The notes under the pieces: model-generated
Told to the model about the DNA's origin: nothing
The model's database searches: none
The model's input: the letters and a program-made list of their open reading frames with translations, nothing else
From: an uncultured Acidobacteriota bacterium
GTDB taxonomy: Bacteria > Acidobacteriota > Thermoanaerobaculia > Gp7-AA8
DNA: 64,000 bases
NCBI GenBank assembly: GCA_963822445.1
Contig: CAWGHO010000002.1
Coordinates: 768,001 to 832,000 of the forward strand
Direction: 5' to 3'
Program-made: the position numbers and the translations under genes
Part shown: piece by piece, positions 47,639-55,421 of the stretch
Layout of the letters: each line of letters opens with the position of its first letter
How positions within the stretch are numbered: the stretch's first letter is position 1

Positions 47639-48507
47639 AACGCCTCGCGCTCGCGCCGCTCCTCCTTCTTCTACTGACCTGCGCCACAGCGCGCACGCCG
47701 GATCTCGCCTCGCAAGTCGATGCGGTTTTGGCCCGCCATCCCGATCAAACGATCGCCGTCGCGTATTACGACCTGGCCACCGGCGCGACGTTCGCCCGCA
47801 ACGACCGCCTCGTCTTTCACGCCGCGAGCACGATGAAGGTTCCGGTGATGCTGGGGATCTTCGAAGCAATCACGCGCGACGAGCTGAGTCTCGATCAGCC
47901 GGTCACGGTCCGCAATCAATTCGTCAGCATCCTCGACGGATCGACGTACGCGCTGGAATCACGCGAAGACTCCGATCCGGCGCTTTATGACGAGATCGGC
48001 CGCGCGCTGCCGCTGGAGAATCTCGTGCGGCGGATGATCGTCCGCAGCTCGAACCTGGCCACGAACATCGTCATTGAGCTGATCGGCGCAAAGCGGGTCA
48101 TGGCCCTGATGAAGGAAATCGGCGCAAACGACATCCAGGTGCTTCGCGGCGTCGAGGACGACAAGGCCTATCACGCGGGCATGAACAACACCGTCACCGC
48201 CCATGACCTCATGCTCGTCTTCAAGACCCTCGGCGAGCGCAAGGCCATCTCCGCCGAGGCTTCGTCGATGATGATCGACATCCTCACGGCGCAGGAATTC
48301 AATGACGGAATCCCCGGCGGTCTGCCCAAAGACACGCCGGTTGCGCACAAGACAGGGTCCATTACGGCAATCGCGCACGACGCGGGGCTGGTCGATTCGA
48401 AATACGTGCTGGTCGTACTGACGAAGGGATTCAAGAAGACGGACGACGCGGAAAAAGTGATCGCGGAAATCTCGAAACTGGTGTGGGAATCGCGAAAAAC
48501 CCCTTGA
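47635..48507 (+). CDS. Class A beta-lactamase-like serine hydrolase (lipoprotein)
   Basis: LLT-C signal; ASTMK, SSN, HKTG. Confidence 0.9.
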   Translation: MKRLALAPLLLLLLTCATARTPDLASQVDAVLARHPDQTIAVAYYDLATGATFARNDRLVFHAASTMKVPVMLGIFEAITRDELSLDQPVTVRNQFVSILDGSTYALESREDSDPALYDEIGRALPLENLVRRMIVRSSNLATNIVIELIGAKRVMALMKEIGANDIQVLRGVEDDKAYHAGMNNTVTAHDLMLVFKTLGERKAISAEASSMMIDILTAQEFNDGIPGGLPKDTPVAHKTGSITAIAHDAGLVDSKYVLVVLTKGFKKTDDAEKVIAEISKLVWESRKTP

Positions 48508-48533
48508 CACTTCACAATGAGCCTTGCTATTGT
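48504..48533 (+). promoter_or_regulatory. Sigma70 promoter for the uORF-ncRNA-slipin locus
   Basis: TTGACA 48504-48509, 18 nt, extended -10 TGc-TATTGT ending 48533. Confidence 0.75.
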
Positions 48534-48546
48534 GCGCCACCCTGAA

Positions 48547-48618
48547 ATGACGAAGAACTTATCGATTGAACGCTTTCCAACGGCCGTCAAACGCGCCGGA
48601 GGTTCCTCTACGAGGTGA
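48547..48618 (+). CDS. Putative attenuator leader peptide MTKNLSIERFPTAVKRAGGSSTR
   Basis: 23-codon ORF starting 14 nt after the -10; its 3' part is complementary to the terminator 5' arm. Confidence 0.6.
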   Translation: MTKNLSIERFPTAVKRAGGSSTR

Positions 48619-48642
48619 CCGCTCCCCAAGAGCGCTCTCGAT

Positions 48643-48681
48643 AGAGCCCCTTCGGTGCGATGCCGAAGGGGCTTTTTGTTT
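48643..48681 (+). terminator. Intrinsic terminator (attenuator)
   Basis: AGAGCCCCTTCGGT-loop-GCCGAAGGGGCTTT followed by TTGTTT. Confidence 0.88.
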
Positions 48682-48683
48682 CT

Positions 48684-49086
48684 GGCGACAAGGACAGTCC
48701 GGGCCGGCGGCGCACACCGCTCCTGACGGATTGTTAGGTGTGTGTTCCGTGAACGGGTTCTGACAAAGGACGTTCTGGTCGCACAAAGGGTCGCGGGTTC
48801 GAGTCCCGCCACGGCCCGAAGGCCGTGTAGCTCAGTTGGGTAGAGCACAGGACTGCTAATCCTGCTTCGATTAAACGACTGATCGCCGTTAGTGATCACC
48901 GGCCGAGGCGAAACATCCTCGGTACCGCCCGCCGGTTAGTACAACGGCAAGCGCGAACGACAGCCCTGCAGCACTCGCGCGCAGTACGCCCGATCTCCGT
49001 GTGTGCGTACGGAGAAACGTCGTAAACGGCGCGATGCTCCGCTTAGAACGCGTGGCGGCCGCGAATGTCAGCCCGGCCGGTCTTTT
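48684..49086 (+). ncRNA. Putative structured ncRNA of about 400 nt, Y-RNA-like, containing a permuted tRNA-like domain
   Basis: No plausible CDS; 5'/3' pairing AAGGAC..CCGGGC with GCCCGG..GTCTTT; many internal hairpins; tRNA module at 48793-48864. Confidence 0.65.
48786..48864 (+). tRNA. Circularly permuted tRNA-like module, anticodon GCT (Ser); not a canonical tRNA gene
   Basis: T arm GCGGG-TTCGAGT-CCCGC, acceptor CACGGCC-CGAA-GGCCGTG, TA, D arm GCTC-AGTTGGGTA-GAGC, A, anticodon arm CAGGA-CTGCTAA-TCCTG. Confidence 0.8.
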
Positions 49087-49159
49087 AGTAGGCAGTAGGC
49101 AGTAGGCAGTAGGCGGGGGGTATGAAGCGTTCTACCGCCTACTGCCTACTGCCTACCGC
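49087..49159. repeat. Inverted heptamer tandem-repeat hairpin (AGTAGGC)n / (GCCTACT)n
   Basis: Directly visible; ends GCCTACCGCGAGGCG like the element at 1522-1588. Confidence 0.85.
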
Positions 49160-49201
49160 GAGGCGGCGCAAGCCGCCGTACTAATCAAAGGAGGTACCAA
49201 A

Positions 49202-50302
49202 ATGATCCGTAGAATCAAAATCAATCCACACGAGCGTGGACTCCTGTTCCGCGAGGGCGATTTCAAGGCCGTGCTGCGGCCGGGCGTGCACTGGTACCTC
49301 GATCCGCTTCTGAAACTGCGTGTCGACGTCGTTTCGCCGCGTGATCCGTGGCTCGTGCATCGCGATCTCGACCTCATTGTGAAGTCGGGTGCCCTCAACG
49401 GTCAGGCCACGGTTGCTGATCTCAAGGACAACGAGCGGGCACTGGTCTGGATCGACGGCCGGTTCTCCGGCGTCATCGGCAGCGGTCTGTACGCGCTGTG
49501 GACCACGGAGCATGAAATTCGCGTCGAGGTGATCGACGCGCGAGCGACGCAGCTCGTGCACAGTGAGCTGTCGGTCATTGTGCGGTCTGCATCGGCGGCG
49601 ACATATCTCGACGTAATGCACGTCGAGGCCGGTCATGCCGGGGTTTGGTTCAAGGACGGTGCATACCAGGCCACGCTTTCGCCGGGTACGTACGCGTTCT
49701 GGAAGGGAAACGCGAAGGTGAAGCTGTACGACGTCGATCTCCGGGAGCAGGTGCTCGACATCAGCGGTCAGGAAATCATGACCGCCGACAAGGTCACTCT
49801 GCGTCTCAATGCACTGGTGCATTACAAGGTCACCGACCCGCTGCGGTCGGTGATGGAGGTCGACGGTGCGGCACAGGCGCTTTACCGCTCCTCGCAGCTC
49901 GCGCTGCGTGAGGCGGTCGGCGCAAAGGACCTCGACACGATCCTGGTCGCGAAGGACACGCTCGCGAGCGAGCTGTCCGTAATGGTCCAGGCGCGTGCCG
50001 CGGAACTGGGAATCACCGTCGTGGCCGCGGGCGTCAAGGACGTCATCCTGCCGGGTGACATGAAAGATCTGATGAACAAGGTCACGGAGGCAAAGAAGGC
50101 CGCGGAGGCGTCGCTCATCACGCGTCGTGAGGAGACGGCGGCAATGCGGATGCAGGCCAACACCGCGAAGATCCTCGAGTCCAACCCGACGCTGATGAAG
50201 CTGAAGGAGCTCGAGGTGCTGGAGAAGGTCGCCGACAAGGCGAACCTGACCGTGCTCCTCGGCGACGAGGGTCTCGCCAACAAGGTAGTCAAACTGCTGT
50301 AG
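49202..50302 (+). CDS. Slipin family (SPFH/Band 7) protein
   Basis: AAGGAGG RBS; repeated ERGLLF..G..L.PG units; GQEIMTADKV, QLALRE, KDVILPG, RREETAA.R..ANTA. Confidence 0.92.
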   Translation: MIRRIKINPHERGLLFREGDFKAVLRPGVHWYLDPLLKLRVDVVSPRDPWLVHRDLDLIVKSGALNGQATVADLKDNERALVWIDGRFSGVIGSGLYALWTTEHEIRVEVIDARATQLVHSELSVIVRSASAATYLDVMHVEAGHAGVWFKDGAYQATLSPGTYAFWKGNAKVKLYDVDLREQVLDISGQEIMTADKVTLRLNALVHYKVTDPLRSVMEVDGAAQALYRSSQLALREAVGAKDLDTILVAKDTLASELSVMVQARAAELGITVVAAGVKDVILPGDMKDLMNKVTEAKKAAEASLITRREETAAMRMQANTAKILESNPTLMKLKELEVLEKVADKANLTVLLGDEGLANKVVKLL

Positions 50303-50311
50303 CCGGCACGG

Positions 50312-50470
50312 CCGGCAGCGCTCGTTGCTGCGCTCACGCACGTGCGGCTGCCGGAAAGTTCAATCTGCGAGTAACGAAAACTGGAGGGGCGGGCGGACAA
50401 GCGAGCCCGTCCCTCACTGACTGGTGCGGATCTGACTCGCGACGCCGATCAGTCAGGAAACGTCAGCTGG
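50312..50470 (+). ncRNA. Putative structured non-coding element downstream of slipin
   Basis: Stems CCGGCAGC/GCTGCCGG, GAGGGGCGGGC/GCCCGTCCCTC, CTGACTGGT/ATCAGTCAG; no U-tract. Confidence 0.4.
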
Positions 50471-50661
50471 CGGTGCGGCGGCGACAAGCTCAATCACTTC
50501 ATGCGCTGGAATACGACAGCGCCCGCTGTCATCTCGAGCGCGCCATGCGCGCCGATCCGAACTGCCTTGGCGAACTGAACGCGCGCATCAAATCGCTCAA
50601 ACAGCTCGACGAGCTCGGCATCCAGCAACGATGCCTTTACGACCTCATCGAAAGAACACGC

Positions 50662-50687
50662 GAAGGGCGACCGAAGGGTCGCCTTTC
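50662..50687 (-). terminator. Hairpin at the stop codon of the histidine phosphatase gene
   Basis: GAAGGGCGACC-GAAG-GGTCGCCTTTC; weak U tract. Confidence 0.5.
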
Positions 50688-51195
50688 AGCGTTTGGGCGC
50701 GCCGTATCGCAACGACACGAGCTTCGGCGACGCGCCTTTGACCAGCGTCACGATGAACAGATCGTCGTACGTCGAGTCGGGCATGTCCGGAACGGTTGCG
50801 CCGAGGGCGCGGATTACGTCGGGCGTGGTGTTCGAGTGGCCGGAGATGAGTACCGTGTCGCCCTCGTGCTTCTCGCGGATGATTTTCACCATCTCTTCGA
50901 CATATGTCTTGCCGGCGCCCACTTCCTCGACCTTCACGCCCAGCTTTTCAGCGACCGGCGCCACGGTCTTGCGCGTGCGCTCGAACGGCGTCGAATAAAT
51001 CGCGTCCAGCTTCACTCCTTCGAGCACGCGGGCCAGCTCGTTCGCGCGGGCCAGACCGGCTTCGCTCAACGGCACATCGCCTGACGGCCCGGCCTTTTCG
51101 CCGTGGCGGACGAGGATCACCGTCGTGATCTCCGGCCCTCCGTTCGCGAAGGCGGACGTGGCGAGGAGGAGCAGGGCGAGGATCGCTCGTTTCAT
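50686..51195 (-). CDS. Exported histidine phosphatase (phosphoglycerate mutase/SixA-like)
   Basis: Signal peptide; LVRHGEK, LSEAG, SGHSNT. Confidence 0.9.
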   Translation of the reverse strand: MKRAILALLLLATSAFANGGPEITTVILVRHGEKAGPSGDVPLSEAGLARANELARVLEGVKLDAIYSTPFERTRKTVAPVAEKLGVKVEEVGAGKTYVEEMVKIIREKHEGDTVLISGHSNTTPDVIRALGATVPDMPDSTYDDLFIVTLVKGASPKLVSLRYGAPKR

Positions 51196-51263: not shown

Positions 51264-54200
51264 GTGCCCCTAACGTCATTCCATCCCGTCGTTCAACGCT
51301 GGTTCACTGAAACACTCGGTCAACCGACCCCCGCCCAGCAGCAAGGCTGGGCCGCCATCCGCGAGCGGCAGCACACCCTCATCGCCGCGCCGACGGGCTC
51401 CGGCAAGACCCTGGCGGCGTTCCTCACCGCGCTCGACGATCTCTTCCAGGAAAGCCTGCAAACCCCTCTGCCGGATGAAGTTCGGGTCGTTTATGTCTCG
51501 CCGCTCAAGGCGCTGAGCACCGACATCCACAAGAACCTCGCCGAGCCGCGCCTCGGGATTCGCAAGCTGGCCGAGGAGATGGGGCTGGGGACGCCGCGGA
51601 TCACGGCGGCGGTACGGACCGGCGACACGACTCAGGGCGAGCGCGCGTCGATGCTGAAAACGCCGCCGCACATCCTCGTGACCACGCCCGAGTCGCTCTA
51701 CCTCCTGCTCACCGCCGAGCGGGGAAGGGAGATGTTGCGCACGACGCGGACGGTGATCGTCGATGAGATCCACGCGCTGATCGGCACGCGCCGCGGCGCG
51801 CATCTCGCGCTGACGCTGGAGCGCCTGCAGCAGGTCGCCGAAGCGCCGCTGTTGCGACTGGGATTGTCGGCGACGCAGAAGCCGATCGATGAAGTGGCCA
51901 GGTACCTGACTGCAGGCGCCGATTGCACCATCGTCAACGAAGGCCACCGCCGGGCCATGGATCTCTCGCTGGAGATCCCCCGCTCTCGTCTCGACGCGGT
52001 GATGTCGGCTGAGGTCTGGACGGAGTACTACGAGCGCCTCACGGAGCTGATCGGCGCGCATCGCACGACGCTCGTGTTCGTGAACACGCGCAAGATGGCC
52101 GAGAGGGTCGCCCGCCACCTCACCGAGCGCCTCGGCGAAGACGCGGTCACCGCGCATCACGGCAGCCTCTCGAAAGAGAACCGTCTCGACGCCGAAACGC
52201 GCCTCAAGACCGGACAACTCAAGGCCCTCGTGGCCACGGCGTCGCTGGAGCTGGGCATCGACATCGGCCACGTCGACCTGGTCTGCCAGATCGGCTCCCC
52301 GCATCGCATCGCCACGTTCCTGCAGCGCGTCGGACGGTCCGGTCACACCGTCTCCGGCCTGCCGAAAGGCCGCGTGTTTCCGGTGTCGCGCGACGATCTG
52401 GTCGAATGCGCGGCGCTCCTGCGCTCCGTGCGCCGCGGTGAGCTCGACGCGATCATCACGCACGACGCGCCGCTCGACGTGCTCGCGCAACAGATCGTTG
52501 CCGAGGCTTCCTGCGAGGATTACTCGGAAGAGGGTTTGTTCGCGATGGTGCGCCGGGCCTGGCCGTATCGCGATCTCGCGCGCAAGGACTTCGATGAAGT
52601 CGTGAAGATGACCGCGGACGGATTCGCGACCAAGCGCGGACGCCGCGGCGCGCTGCTGCATCGCGATGAAGTGAATGGAAACGTTCGCGGACGCCGCGGA
52701 TCGCGCCAGCTGGCCATCACCTCCGGCGGCGCGATTCCGGAAGTCGCCGACTATCGCGTGGTCATGGAGCCGGACGAGACGTTCATCGGCACGCTCAACG
52801 AGGACTTCGCCATCGAGAGCAACGTCGGCGACATCTTCCAGCTCGGCAACATGTCCTGGCGCGTGCTGCAGGTGGCCGGCGGCGTGGTGCGCGTTGCCGA
52901 CGCCAAAGGCTCGCCGCCGAGCATCCCCTTCTGGTTCGGCGAGGCGCCGGGGCGGAGCGATGAGTTGTCGCGGGCGGTGAGTGACTTGCGGGCGGACGTC
53001 GAGGAGAGGCTCAAAGGCGCAGAGGCTCAAAGGCGCAAAGAGGACGTCGCCGAACCTTTGAGCCCTTGCGCCCTTGAGCCTTTGAGCCTTGTCGCGTGGC
53101 TGATCGACGAATGTTCCATCCCCGAGTCCGCCGCAATCGAAATCGCCGACTACCTCACCGAATCCAAACGCATCCTCGGCGTGCTCCCCACCCAGGACAC
53201 GCTCGTGCTGGAGCGCTTCTTCGACGAATCGGGCGGGATGCAGCTCGTGCTGCACGCGCCGTTCGGGAGCCGGATCAACAAGGCCTGGGGGCTCGCGCTG
53301 CGGAAGCGTTTCTGCAGGCAGTTCGATTTCGAATTGCAGGCCGCGGCAACCGAAGACGCCGTGCTGCTCTCGCTCGGTCCGCAGCATTCCTTCCCGCTCG
53401 CGGACGTCTTCCGTTATCTCCATCCGGCGACGGCGAAGGACGTGCTGGTCCAGGCGTTCCTCGATGCGCCGGTGTGGCAGACGCGGTGGCGCTGGAATGC
53501 CACGGTCTCGCTGGCCGTGCCGCGGAATCGCAACGGGAAGAAGGTCGCGCCGCAACTGCAGCGGATGATCGCCGACGATCTGATGGCCGGTGTCTTCCCC
53601 GATGCCGCGGCCTGTTTCGAGAATGTGGCCGGCGATCGCAAGATCCCCGACCATCCGCTCGTCAATCAGGCCGTGCGTGATTGCCTCGAGGAGGCGATGG
53701 ATTTCGAGGGGCTGTCGCGAGTGCTCACGCGGATTCATGCGGATGAGATCGAGCTCATTGCGCGCGACACGCCTGAGCCCTCGCCGCTCTCGCACGAGAT
53801 TCTCAACGCCAAACCCTACGCATTTCTCGACGATGCACCGCTGGAAGAGCGCCGCACGCAGGCCGTCTACACCCGCCGCGCCGGCGACGTCTCCTCGGCC
53901 AATGACCTCGGTGCACTCGACGTCGCAGCAATGGTCCGCGTTCGCGATGAGGCGCGGCCCGACCCTCGCGATGCGGATGAATTGCACGATGCGCTGCTGA
54001 GCGCGGGATTCCTCACGGATGTGGATGAGGAGTTGATTGCGAAGCTCGCCGCGACGAAGCGCGTGGCGTGTGCGGGAAACGCGTGGATCGCCGCGGAGCG
54101 CATCCCCGAGTTCCTCGCCATTCATCCGACCACGCAGTTCGCGGTCACCGCTCCGCAAAGCCGCAATCGCGAATGGTCCCGCGAGGACGCCATCAAGGAA

Positions 54201-55421
54201 ATCCTCCGCGGACGCATGACCATCCTCGGTCCGACCACGGCCGACGCGCTCGCAGCGTCGCTGAACATCGACAAGAGCGAAGCCGACGCCGCGCTGATCG
54301 CGCTCGAATCGGAGGGCGTCGTGCTGCGCGGCTCATTCGAGCATCGCAACGGCGTGGAGTGGTGCGATCGCCGCCTGCTCGCGCGCATCCATCGCTACAC
54401 CATCAACCGCCTGCGCGCGGAGATCGAGCCGGTCAACGCGGCGACGTTCCAGCGCTTCCTGTTCGCCTGGCAGCACGTCGCGCCGTTCACCAAGCTCGCC
54501 GGCGTCGACGGACTGCAGAAAATCCTCACCCAGCTCGACGGATATGAAGTCGCCGCCGGGGCGTGGGAGAAAACGGTGCTCCCCGCACGCGTCGAAGGCT
54601 ACGAGCCGTCGATGCTGGACATGCTCTGCCTGACCGGCGAAGTGGCCTGGGCGCGCTTGTCCGCGCCGACCGCGGCGACGGTCGTTTCCGCTACACCGAT
54701 TGCGCTATTCCTGCGGGCGAATGCCGAGGCCTGGCAGTCGGAGCGCGGAACGATCGAGTTGAGCCCGCGGGCGACGAACATCCTCGAGATCCTGAGAACG
54801 CGCGGAGCCTGCTTTGCCCGCGATCTCAACGACGATCTGCTCTCGCTGAGCGAGCTCGTTTCGGCGGGACTGATTGCATCGGATGGATTCGCCGGCCTGC
54901 GCACGCTCATCGCCGCAGCGAACGATCATCGTCCACGTGCGAACTTCTCCGGACGCTGGTCAGCACTTCCGCCCGGGTCCGAGCGCGACGAAAACGCGGT
55001 CGAGATTCAGGCAAAGGCTTTTCTGCGGCGCTACGGAATCGTCTTCCGGCGCCTGCTCACCCGCGAGGCCAGCGCGGCGCCGTGGCGCGAGCTGTCGCGG
55101 ATCTATCGGAGGCTGGAGGCGCGCGGCGAGATTCGCGGCGGGCGCTTCGTGCACGGCATGAGCGGCGAGCAGTTCGCGCTGCCCGAAGCGGTCGAGCGCC
55201 TGCGCGAGATCCGCCGCCAGCCCGCCGACGGCCGGATCATCAGCATCAGCGCCGCCGATCCGCTGAACCTCACCGGCATCCTGACGTCGGACGAGCGAAT
55301 CCGCGCGGCCACCAACACGGTCATCTCCTACCGCGACGGAATAGTGCAGAGCGAGCCCGGCGCACACGCCGATTACCAGCCCGAGCGTCACTTCGACCAG
55401 CGTGTGCCGCTTCAGGCGTAA
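51264..55421 (+). CDS. lhr: Lhr family ATP-dependent DEAH helicase (long form)
   Basis: APTGSGKT, SPLKAL, TTPESL, DEIH, SAT, SLELGID, QRVGRSGH; C-terminal RGGRFV..SGEQFA, ADPLN. Confidence 0.93.
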   Translation: MPLTSFHPVVQRWFTETLGQPTPAQQQGWAAIRERQHTLIAAPTGSGKTLAAFLTALDDLFQESLQTPLPDEVRVVYVSPLKALSTDIHKNLAEPRLGIRKLAEEMGLGTPRITAAVRTGDTTQGERASMLKTPPHILVTTPESLYLLLTAERGREMLRTTRTVIVDEIHALIGTRRGAHLALTLERLQQVAEAPLLRLGLSATQKPIDEVARYLTAGADCTIVNEGHRRAMDLSLEIPRSRLDAVMSAEVWTEYYERLTELIGAHRTTLVFVNTRKMAERVARHLTERLGEDAVTAHHGSLSKENRLDAETRLKTGQLKALVATASLELGIDIGHVDLVCQIGSPHRIATFLQRVGRSGHTVSGLPKGRVFPVSRDDLVECAALLRSVRRGELDAIITHDAPLDVLAQQIVAEASCEDYSEEGLFAMVRRAWPYRDLARKDFDEVVKMTADGFATKRGRRGALLHRDEVNGNVRGRRGSRQLAITSGGAIPEVADYRVVMEPDETFIGTLNEDFAIESNVGDIFQLGNMSWRVLQVAGGVVRVADAKGSPPSIPFWFGEAPGRSDELSRAVSDLRADVEERLKGAEAQRRKEDVAEPLSPCALEPLSLVAWLIDECSIPESAAIEIADYLTESKRILGVLPTQDTLVLERFFDESGGMQLVLHAPFGSRINKAWGLALRKRFCRQFDFELQAAATEDAVLLSLGPQHSFPLADVFRYLHPATAKDVLVQAFLDAPVWQTRWRWNATVSLAVPRNRNGKKVAPQLQRMIADDLMAGVFPDAAACFENVAGDRKIPDHPLVNQAVRDCLEEAMDFEGLSRVLTRIHADEIELIARDTPEPSPLSHEILNAKPYAFLDDAPLEERRTQAVYTRRAGDVSSANDLGALDVAAMVRVRDEARPDPRDADELHDALLSAGFLTDVDEELIAKLAATKRVACAGNAWIAAERIPEFLAIHPTTQFAVTAPQSRNREWSREDAIKEILRGRMTILGPTTADALAASLNIDKSEADAALIALESEGVVLRGSFEHRNGVEWCDRRLLARIHRYTINRLRAEIEPVNAATFQRFLFAWQHVAPFTKLAGVDGLQKILTQLDGYEVAAGAWEKTVLPARVEGYEPSMLDMLCLTGEVAWARLSAPTAATVVSATPIALFLRANAEAWQSERGTIELSPRATNILEILRTRGACFARDLNDDLLSLSELVSAGLIASDGFAGLRTLIAAANDHRPRANFSGRWSALPPGSERDENAVEIQAKAFLRRYGIVFRRLLTREASAAPWRELSRIYRRLEARGEIRGGRFVHGMSGEQFALPEAVERLREIRRQPADGRIISISAADPLNLTGILTSDERIRAATNTVISYRDGIVQSEPGAHADYQPERHFDQRVPLQA
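53007..53089. repeat. Inverted octamer tandem-repeat hairpin inside the lhr reading frame
   Basis: (AGGCTCAA/AGGCGCAR)x4 ... (TTGAGCCY/TTGCGCCC)x4; frame preserved. Confidence 0.85.

Follow-up and report, generated by a model that had tools for sequence, protein, structure and literature searches.

The 64,000-nucleotide stretch of DNA analysed here (hereafter the window) comes from an uncultured soil Acidobacteriota bacterium (GenBank assembly GCA_963822445.1, contig CAWGHO010000002.1, positions 768,001 to 832,000) and carries at positions 48504-50302 a promoter, a short leader reading frame, a transcription attenuator, a large structured RNA with a permuted tRNA-like module, and the gene for a slipin, a protein of the SPFH/Band_7 family. 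The sequence analysis and the comparison with related loci suggest that this unit is a member of the Band-7 (slipin)/tRNA-like RNA system that was predicted in 2016, gated here by the attenuator and displaying a fuller anatomy, and that it encodes an RNA-protein module connected to translation stress. We assign this reading a probability of about 0.6. The anatomy of the unit, its conservation, the covariation in the RNA and the mutually exclusive folds of the leader are direct results of the computation. An earlier interpretation of the same DNA from its letters alone (the sequence-only reading) had proposed a single co-oriented unit, and all parts within 48504-50302 indeed lie on the plus strand.

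The sequence-only reading also called the locus undescribed, which is not supported. [quoted passage not shown] Literature searches for b7a-tRNA, for slipin with a tRNA array, for tRNA-like RNA with SPFH and for band 7 with Y RNA gave no other account, and a search on band-7 with RtcB and TROVE returned nothing. No description was found of the domains that flank the tRNA-like module, the 2016 prediction itself being known through this one citing preprint. The pairing is therefore known as a prediction, whereas no account was found of the attenuator, of the large structured RNA or of how strictly this RNA is tied to a single slipin subfamily.

The structured RNA and the slipin gene

Relatives of the locus were taken as the best 80 of 559 slipin-encoding stretches from a scan of species-representative genomes. 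Their slipins share 57-79% identity across Acidobacteriota, Planctomycetota, Desulfobacterota and one Actinomycetota, and the closest loci belong to Thermoanaerobaculia. Individual relatives' loci are labelled with L-numbers (L003, L009 and so on).

The slipin gene (49202-50302, plus strand) encodes 366 amino acids and follows the Shine-Dalgarno (SD) sequence AAAGGAGG at 49187-49194, in agreement with the strong ribosome binding site claimed before. Its product matches the Band_7 profile PF01145 with an E-value of 1e-33 and 117.3 bits against a cut-off of 23.6, which places it in the SPFH/Band_7 family. It scores below the cut-offs of the NCBIfam models for HflK and HflC, and in NCBI naming homologs that share 34% identity with it carry the label slipin family protein. 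An AlphaFold2 model built from 28 sequences (mean pLDDT 84.7) shows two N-terminal five-stranded beta modules, an SPFH domain and a C-terminal helix of ~40 residues. The protein appears to be soluble, as no hydrophobic anchor was seen when the sequence was judged by eye. A PADLOC defence scan gave no match for the slipin or for the open reading frame (ORF) that follows it in some relatives, and a phage collection contained no slipin homolog at E 1e-30.

The best Foldseek matches of the model are human and archaeal stomatin, HflK/C, QmcA, prohibitin, erlin and flotillin, while the longest alignments, of 405-459 columns, are those with major vault protein chains. The proteins matched all form rings or cages. 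The eukaryotic vault consists of major vault protein, vault RNA and the TROVE protein TEP1. What the slipin unit shares with it is a soluble protein in which a long helix and a shoulder of the SPFH type are combined with beta-repeat modules, and the association with a small structured RNA. However, the slipin has just two N-terminal modules, the query-normalised TM-score is 0.37-0.38, and cage formation and RNA binding are known for the vault side only.

Between the terminator of the leader and the SD sequence lie ~510 nt that hold no credible ORF. The sequence-only reading saw here about 400 nt of non-coding structured RNA with a permuted tRNA, and such an RNA is found at ~48690-49086. The claim stands for this part. 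The segment 49087-49157, also within the leader, is an inverted repeat of the heptamer type (GTAGGCA)n, an insertion resembling repetitive extragenic palindromes, to which no strand was assigned. It stands between the RNA and the SD sequence, has 83 matches distributed over all three contigs of the window's own genome and is missing at this position in relatives. As a dispersed genomic repeat it falls outside the conserved RNA. One of its copies is located ~550 nt upstream of the RtcB gene, and the repeat is very abundant in DNA sequenced from soil, with a depth of ~1600 in one run.

The 5' domain of the RNA (48690-48775, plus strand) is a long irregular hairpin in which the internal loops GGCCRGCGGC and GUUCCGUGNAYGGGUUCUGACGAAGG are kept. 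RNAalifold and manual reading agree on this hairpin. In an alignment of 37 sequences (A3), 86.8% of the cells are paired, compared to 31-50% when the 3' partners are slid, and compensatory changes occur at 13 of the 20 pairs; the observed values were reached by none of 500 shuffles. At one of the pairs, 18 sequences have AU while 17 have GC. This difference does not reflect one split between phyla, since GC also occurs within Planctomycetota (L068, L076). The 3' domain (48880-49086, plus strand) was examined with a 22-sequence alignment and its RNAalifold consensus fold. It begins with a hairpin at 48880-48898 (73% paired) and is dominated by a long-range core helix (48951-48973/49035-49053) that is 91-95% paired and has compensatory changes at 9 of 13 pairs. 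A possible closing helix (48899-48905/49074-49080) is 63% paired with little covariation; the minimum-energy fold of the single sequence contains it. The domain ends in a T run at 49083-49086. When the upstream regions are aligned, homology extends over the entire leader, in the close clade as well as across phyla.

Rfam contains no family for either domain, as judged from searches with the window and with the loci of 14 relatives; the latter gave tRNA alone (38 matches). At the E-value threshold the window gave, besides YrlA and tRNA, only chance microRNA matches on the heptamer hairpin.

Conservation of the intergenic structure together with this slipin subfamily is shown by a covariance model of the 5' domain, called R1 below, which was derived from alignment A3. 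The model scores 73.1 bits at the window's 5' domain. Of the relatives' 80 loci it matches 73, which together with the window make up the set of 74 loci used in the counts below. There is one match per locus, always on the slipin strand and always upstream, mostly 300-870 nt before the slipin ATG and in two cases 1.6 and 2.3 kb away. Where at least 700 nt of upstream DNA are available R1 is present in 72 of 73 loci. The model missed L081, L052, for which 601 nt of upstream sequence exist, and five loci where the upstream sequence is shorter than 350 nt; in L061 a partial match lies at a contig edge. The window's own genome (3 contigs, 6.0 Mb, 94.74% complete) has a single R1 match. In a sample of 151 Acidobacteriota genomes that were scanned for R1 and for slipin orthologs, R1 was found in exactly the 4 that encode a full-length slipin of at least 56% identity and in none of the other 147. 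This 4/4 versus 0/147 co-occurrence agrees with the earlier suggestion that the RNA is tied to slipin rather than to Ro60. RNA and slipin are co-inherited across phyla.

Since the RNA is invariably co-oriented with slipin and directly upstream of it, it could also be no more than an extended 5' leader that acts in cis on the slipin mRNA, for example a riboswitch-like or T-box-like element or an element for processing or stability, which would adjust the transcription or translation of slipin without any partnership with the protein. A strong SD sequence just downstream of the RNA, the lack of a separate promoter and of a clear terminator bounding it, and the T-rich run at 49083-49086, which also occurs past the 3' domain of several relatives and could be a second regulated terminator, are in line with such a role. 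However, an element of 400-550 nt that includes a tRNA mimic is kept in three phyla, and we know of no leader of a single small gene that approaches this size. Furthermore, the Planctomycetota copies follow tRNA arrays, where processing by RNase P and RNase Z would free the RNA. No helix that sequesters the SD sequence turned up, although a systematic search for one was not made. Mimics of the YrlA type act in trans within ribonucleoproteins, according to the accessible parts of the relevant papers (bioRxiv 10.1101/312249; PMC4201824). On balance a purely cis-acting leader seems rather unlikely.

The tRNA-like module

The module at the centre of the RNA (48787-48864, plus strand) has a variable-loop-like AGGGUC first, then a T arm and an acceptor stem that is closed, followed by a D arm and last by an anticodon arm. 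The T arm (48793-48809) is formed by GCGGG/CCCGC. In the 7-bp acceptor stem (48810-48827) CACGGCC at 48810-48816 pairs with GGCCGUG at 48821-48827 across a CGAA loop, and both this hairpin and the T arm are present in the minimum-energy fold. The D arm (48830-48846) was read in the sequence and lies within the YrlA match discussed below. The anticodon arm (48848-48864) is a complete hairpin with the loop CUGCUAA, and 3' of it, where a T arm would be expected, only a decayed TTCGATT is found. The Rfam tRNA model RF00005 gives a marginal match of 32.9 bits on 48821-48891, the sole match that reaches a gathering score; it covers a 5' half and has no T arm in register.

Two other identities were considered and rejected. 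A genuine tRNA gene is contradicted by ARAGORN, which reports no tRNA and no tmRNA in the whole window, by the acceptor stem being closed by the CGAA loop and by the lack of a cloverleaf in standard order. A permuted two-piece tmRNA is contradicted by the same ARAGORN result and by an Rfam tmRNA score of 18.3 bits against a gathering score of 47.

The closest match in Rfam is YrlA (RF02553), with 48.7 bits and an E-value of 2.7e-9 on 48789-48846, corresponding to positions 27-81 in a model of 114. What the module shares with YrlA, in identical permuted order, are the T arm, the closed acceptor stem and the D arm (48793-48846), and the 7-bp closed stem is like that of Mycobacterium smegmatis YrlA, which is cleaved by RNase P and receives a CCA end, as stated in the available part of PMC4201824. 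The similarity raises the possibility of a canonical YrlA Y RNA that works with Ro60 (Rsr) encoded elsewhere. However, the score is below the gathering score of 69, so that the module does not belong to the family as a whole, and because the match covers positions 27-81 alone the Ro-binding stem is missing. A search for TROVE (PF05731) found none in the window's own genome, which is 94.74% complete, while the search controls responded in 2 genomes. This agrees with the earlier claim that there is no TROVE or rtcB neighbour: the RtcB gene is on a different contig of this genome. The module also differs from YrlA in having its own local anticodon arm, in being embedded in a much larger RNA and in having slipin as partner gene. 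It is the only YrlA-like match in the genome. In view of these differences a canonical Y RNA is a most improbable explanation.

The same position in relatives is occupied by related units of variable form. All 74 loci have a T-loop motif between R1 and slipin, within 230 nt past R1, and 66 have a D-arm motif there, compared to 1 of 74 in shuffled sequences. Some relatives have one tRNA-like unit in ordinary order (L003, L004), others two in tandem (L006, L007, L013), and some retain the T arm alone. ARAGORN calls a tRNA at the module position in 40 of the 74 loci. The "anticodons" are diverse, including aag, agg, aac, gct, gat and cat as well as unreadable ones, and the Rfam tRNA matches often skip the outer acceptor pairs (model positions 3-68, 4-67 or 5-66). 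Because of this variation and the often unmatched outer acceptor pairs, the units are best regarded as mimics rather than decoders. Since relatives carry one ordinary or two tandem units there, the module of the window looks like the 3' half of one unit fused to the 5' half of the next, and the YrlA-like topology may have arisen by joining halves of adjacent tRNA-like units.

A fusion of this kind could also be accidental. In that case the tRNA-like pieces would be decaying relics of tRNA arrays, the flanking domains only processing signals that free the slipin mRNA from a tRNA-mRNA co-transcript, and the permutation the result of a deletion. Arrays precede the RNA in 29 of the 74 loci, the window's module resembles halves of neighbouring units, tandem units exist in L006, L007 and L013, and in some relatives only the T arm is left, which all fits decay. 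In contrast, a T arm is present in every locus, and at the junction in the window 7 bp pair perfectly into a stem whose loop has 4 nt. The compensatory changes in both the 5' and the 3' domain argue against mere processing signals as well, as they indicate structural selection well beyond cleavage sites. We consider the relic explanation improbable.

The leader upstream of the RNA

Transcription would start at a sigma70-type promoter (48504-48533, plus strand) composed of TTGACA at 48504-48509, an 18-nt spacer and TATTGT at 48528-48533, with a TG upstream of the latter. The near-consensus promoter noticed earlier is confirmed: it matches the consensus at 10 of 12 positions and is the sole such site within 48300-50800, where shuffled sequences give 0.3. 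Both hexamers are kept in L003, L005, L014 and L015 and partly in L004. The first bases past the -10 hexamer, GCGCCACCC (window 48533-48546; alignment A1), are kept among close relatives, in which their distance to the AUG of the leader reading frame varies from 0 to ~20 nt.

A leader upstream open reading frame (uORF) of 23 codons, MTKNLSIERFPTAVKRAGGSSTR, extends over 48547-48618 on the plus strand, from ATG at 48547 to TGA at 48616-48618, as given by the sequence and the ORF list. The 23-residue frame had been recognised in the sequence-only reading with a start one base off. Its AUG is a few bases from the predicted transcript start, and it has no SD sequence. It is followed by an intrinsic terminator (48643-48677, plus strand), a 15-pair hairpin at 48643-48675 with a T run, into which the full leader of the window folds with -57.1 kcal/mol (z -3.2). 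Besides the window, 18 relatives have the terminator core GCCCCTTCG...CGAAGGGGC and the T run, while the loops vary. In these 19 loci an ATG-initiated ORF of at least 17 codons is always present, compared to 0.24 per locus in mononucleotide shuffles, and its stop codon is always 26-32 nt upstream of the core hairpin and 14-17 nt downstream of GGAG. The encoded peptides are mutually unrelated and have no codon runs, so regulatory codons matched to the cargo are not found. The conserved CCGGAGG is read in two frames, as Ala-Gly-Gly at some loci and Pro-Glu-Val at others. Leader conservation thus resides in the RNA and not in the peptide.

The antiterminator (48596-48655, plus strand) that was proposed to compete with this hairpin is found as well. 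Its outer helix pairs CCGGAGG at 48596-48602 with CCUUCGG at 48649-48655, the latter being part of the 5' arm of the terminator. With the 3' arm of the terminator removed the antiterminator is the minimum-energy fold of the window (-32.4 kcal/mol), and the CCGGAGG/CCUUCGG pairing forms in 9 of 11 leaders truncated in this way. The inner helices, which take in the last part of the uORF with the stop codon, vary in sequence between relatives. The leader can therefore adopt either of two mutually exclusive folds, terminator or antiterminator. A short ORF, predicted to be translated, reaches with its end into an antiterminator, and the latter is in competition with an intrinsic terminator; this is the defining arrangement of a leader-peptide transcription attenuator.

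The hairpin might instead merely end the upstream gene, which encodes a class-A beta-lactamase-like protein, with the uORF as a chance frame and no attenuator at all. The hairpin is 136 nt past the stop codon of that gene, the -35 hexamer overlaps this stop codon (the ORF ends at 48507) and, as mentioned, the uORF has no SD sequence. This explanation is very hard to reconcile with the relatives: promoter, uORF and terminator accompany the RNA and slipin at 18 other loci, and the beta-lactamase-like gene occurs upstream in the window and in L009 alone. Since the upstream gene differs among the attenuator loci, the terminator belongs to the leader and not to that gene. The fixed geometry of the uORF stop in 19/19 loci against an expected 0.24 and the competing fold in 9/11 leaders also speak for an attenuator.

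Attenuators with leader peptides are known from amino-acid operons of the trp type and from antibiotic-induced leaders of resistance genes. The leader described here shares with them the short uORF, the mutually exclusive antiterminator and terminator, and the position of the uORF end within the antiterminator. It differs in having no regulatory codon run and no conserved peptide, in the conserved SD-like GGAGG 14-17 nt before the stop codon, and in its cargo, which is a non-coding RNA together with slipin.

Gene neighbourhood and a model for the unit

Downstream of slipin the sequence-only reading saw a further structured stretch of 160 nt (50303-50480). This is not a conserved RNA element. 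The region 50303-50509 (plus strand) consists of hairpins at ~50303-50355 and 50385-50418, followed by the remnant of a decayed ORF at 50420-50509, and relatives bear unrelated, variable hairpins past the slipin stop codon. The ORF, of 212-252 amino acids, is intact in 4 of the 80 relatives' loci: L003 (5158-5793), L009 (5126-5881), L012 and L015 (5163-5816). The window keeps 30 amino acids of it at 60% identity (50420-50509), after which the frame shifts. Over 50420-50600 its N-terminus is lost and an internal deletion accompanies the frame shift. The motifs ADKLNHFMRW and LPRNLIGDHA are conserved among close relatives, and the ORF of the L009 type matched no Pfam or NCBIfam family. A gene for an Lhr-type helicase of 1385 amino acids (DEAD, Helicase_C, DEAD_assoc and Lhr winged-helix domains; window 51264-55421) follows ~1 kb past slipin. 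It is likewise downstream of slipin in L003, L004, L009 and L015, which may be plain synteny of the close clade.

RNA-repair genes are adjacent to slipin in a minority of relatives. RtcB-like genes occur within 4 kb in 3 of the 80 loci. For the gene directly downstream, 71 candidate ORFs were picked by length, which is unreliable in high-GC DNA; the 33 of them on the slipin strand were scanned, and 4 encode RtcA. In Planctomycetota the slipin unit is located at the 3' end of same-strand tRNA arrays, with at least 4 upstream tRNAs in 29 of the 74 loci. Up to 27 tRNAs are found in the 3.3-kb upstream flank; array loci include L016, L019, L023, L029, L037, L042, L069 and L079, and L016 and L023 have 8 further tRNAs downstream. 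The final tRNA of the array is often tRNA-Cys, and the 5' domain of the RNA begins 12-40 nt later. In Citrobacter freundii (NZ_CP151862.1, L087, 3966-7919) rtcR is divergent from a slipin family gene (34% identity), which is followed by a nucleotidyltransferase gene instead of rtcBA.

With the predicted Band-7/b7a-tRNA system, as far as it is outlined in the citing preprint, the locus has in common a Band-7/slipin gene adjoining an RNA that resembles tRNA, and RtcA or RtcB adjacent in a minority of relatives. It differs in that RtcB is no neighbour here, in that the mimic is permuted, and in that the mimic is one module of an RNA of ~400-550 nt preceded by a predicted ribosome-dependent attenuator. 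A second connection is to the TrcR regulon of Anabaena, in which, according to the accessible part of PMC10272220, TrcR keeps the slipin operon alr0739-0740, rtcB and the trn tRNA array repressed; they are de-repressed together, and chloramphenicol induces them. The translation-stress theme proposed from the sequence fits these data, with slipin operon, rtcB and tRNA array all responding to translational stress, and slipin, rtc genes and tRNA array meet at one locus in Planctomycetota. The Anabaena genes are controlled by a protein repressor and not by an attenuator, no RNA element is reported in the part of that paper available, and alr0740 is likened to the present slipin by family name.

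In view of the above, we infer transcription of the unit, the direction of its switch, the binding of RNA to protein and a cellular role along the following lines. The sigma70-type promoter would start a transcript that opens with the 23-codon leader. A ribosome translating the uORF to its stop codon would cover the segment from GGAGG to the stop, by which one strand of the antiterminator is masked; the terminator at 48643-48677 could then form and transcription would end. The ribosomal anti-SD sequence may additionally hold GGAGG. When ribosomes are scarce, slow or stalled, the GGAGG-to-stop segment would pair with the 5' arm of the terminator and RNA polymerase would read through. The product would be an RNA of ~400 nt, comprising the 5' domain, an L-shaped tRNA mimic with its closed 7-bp acceptor stem and the 3' domain, with the slipin mRNA on the same read-through transcript. 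Slipin would be one of the SPFH proteins that form rings or cages, in a soluble version, and the tRNA mimic could offer a handle to the slipin assembly or to a factor that recognises tRNA. Their joint inheritance suggests that RNA and slipin act together in a translation-stress or RNA-damage module. The roles of decoy, sensor or scaffold that the sequence-only reading gave to the RNA are conjectural.

Several points weigh against this reading or parts of it. The sequences are mutually related, so that counts across loci are not independent. L081 has no R1 despite ample upstream DNA. R1 is also missing from more distant slipins: six further genomes of the Acidobacteriota sample with slipin matches of 33-42% identity gave no R1 at E 1e-4. 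In the 450-nt region between rtcR and slipin of Citrobacter, ARAGORN and Rfam found nothing and R1 scored 10.8 bits, which is noise. The attenuator was found only in the Thermoanaerobaculia clade, with 19 of the 74 loci and 3 more with a different hairpin, and in 29 of the 74 the RNA follows a tRNA array instead. The uORF is not preceded by an SD sequence. The leaders of L005 and L018, 2 of the 11, fold otherwise, and the outer antiterminator helix is just 7 bp long and invariant, so no covariation is seen in it. No sequencing run contained as much as half of the stretch. In two soil metatranscriptome runs of one study, contigs match 48786-49081 and portions of the slipin coding sequence at 88-97% identity; they are weakly compatible with expression of relatives and may also derive from DNA carry-over. 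The same two runs gave no cover over 48400-48770. Nothing can be concluded from them on the ends of the RNA because the contigs break at the repeat in DNA runs too.

The anatomy also allows a more far-reaching proposal, which we put forward tentatively and regard as possible but doubtful. The RNA of ~400-550 nt might represent a new class of large structured non-coding RNA and be the dedicated partner of a soluble, vault-like slipin cage, with the ribonucleoprotein made only when ribosomes fail. The mimic may then be opened by RNase P to give two pieces with a CCA end, and it could recruit or sequester tRNA-handling factors or damaged tRNAs.

The pairing of Band-7 proteins with tRNA-like RNA has been a prediction since 2016 and was still called unvalidated in the 2018 preprint (bioRxiv 10.1101/312249, as far as available). 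The present analysis adds that the tRNA mimic is merely the middle of a larger RNA, whose flanks are conserved and covary over at least three phyla and have no Rfam family, and that presence of this RNA follows one slipin subfamily almost one to one. In one clade a predicted ribosome-sensing attenuator would gate the unit, and in Planctomycetota the unit closes large tRNA arrays. Cultivated carriers exist, namely the isolates behind L038 (Aeoliella sp. SH292) and L057 (Planctomicrobium sp. SH664). Taken together, these results make the slipin unit a concrete candidate, accessible to testing, for what would be the counterpart in bacteria of vault or Ro/Y-RNA particles, with a link to translation stress.

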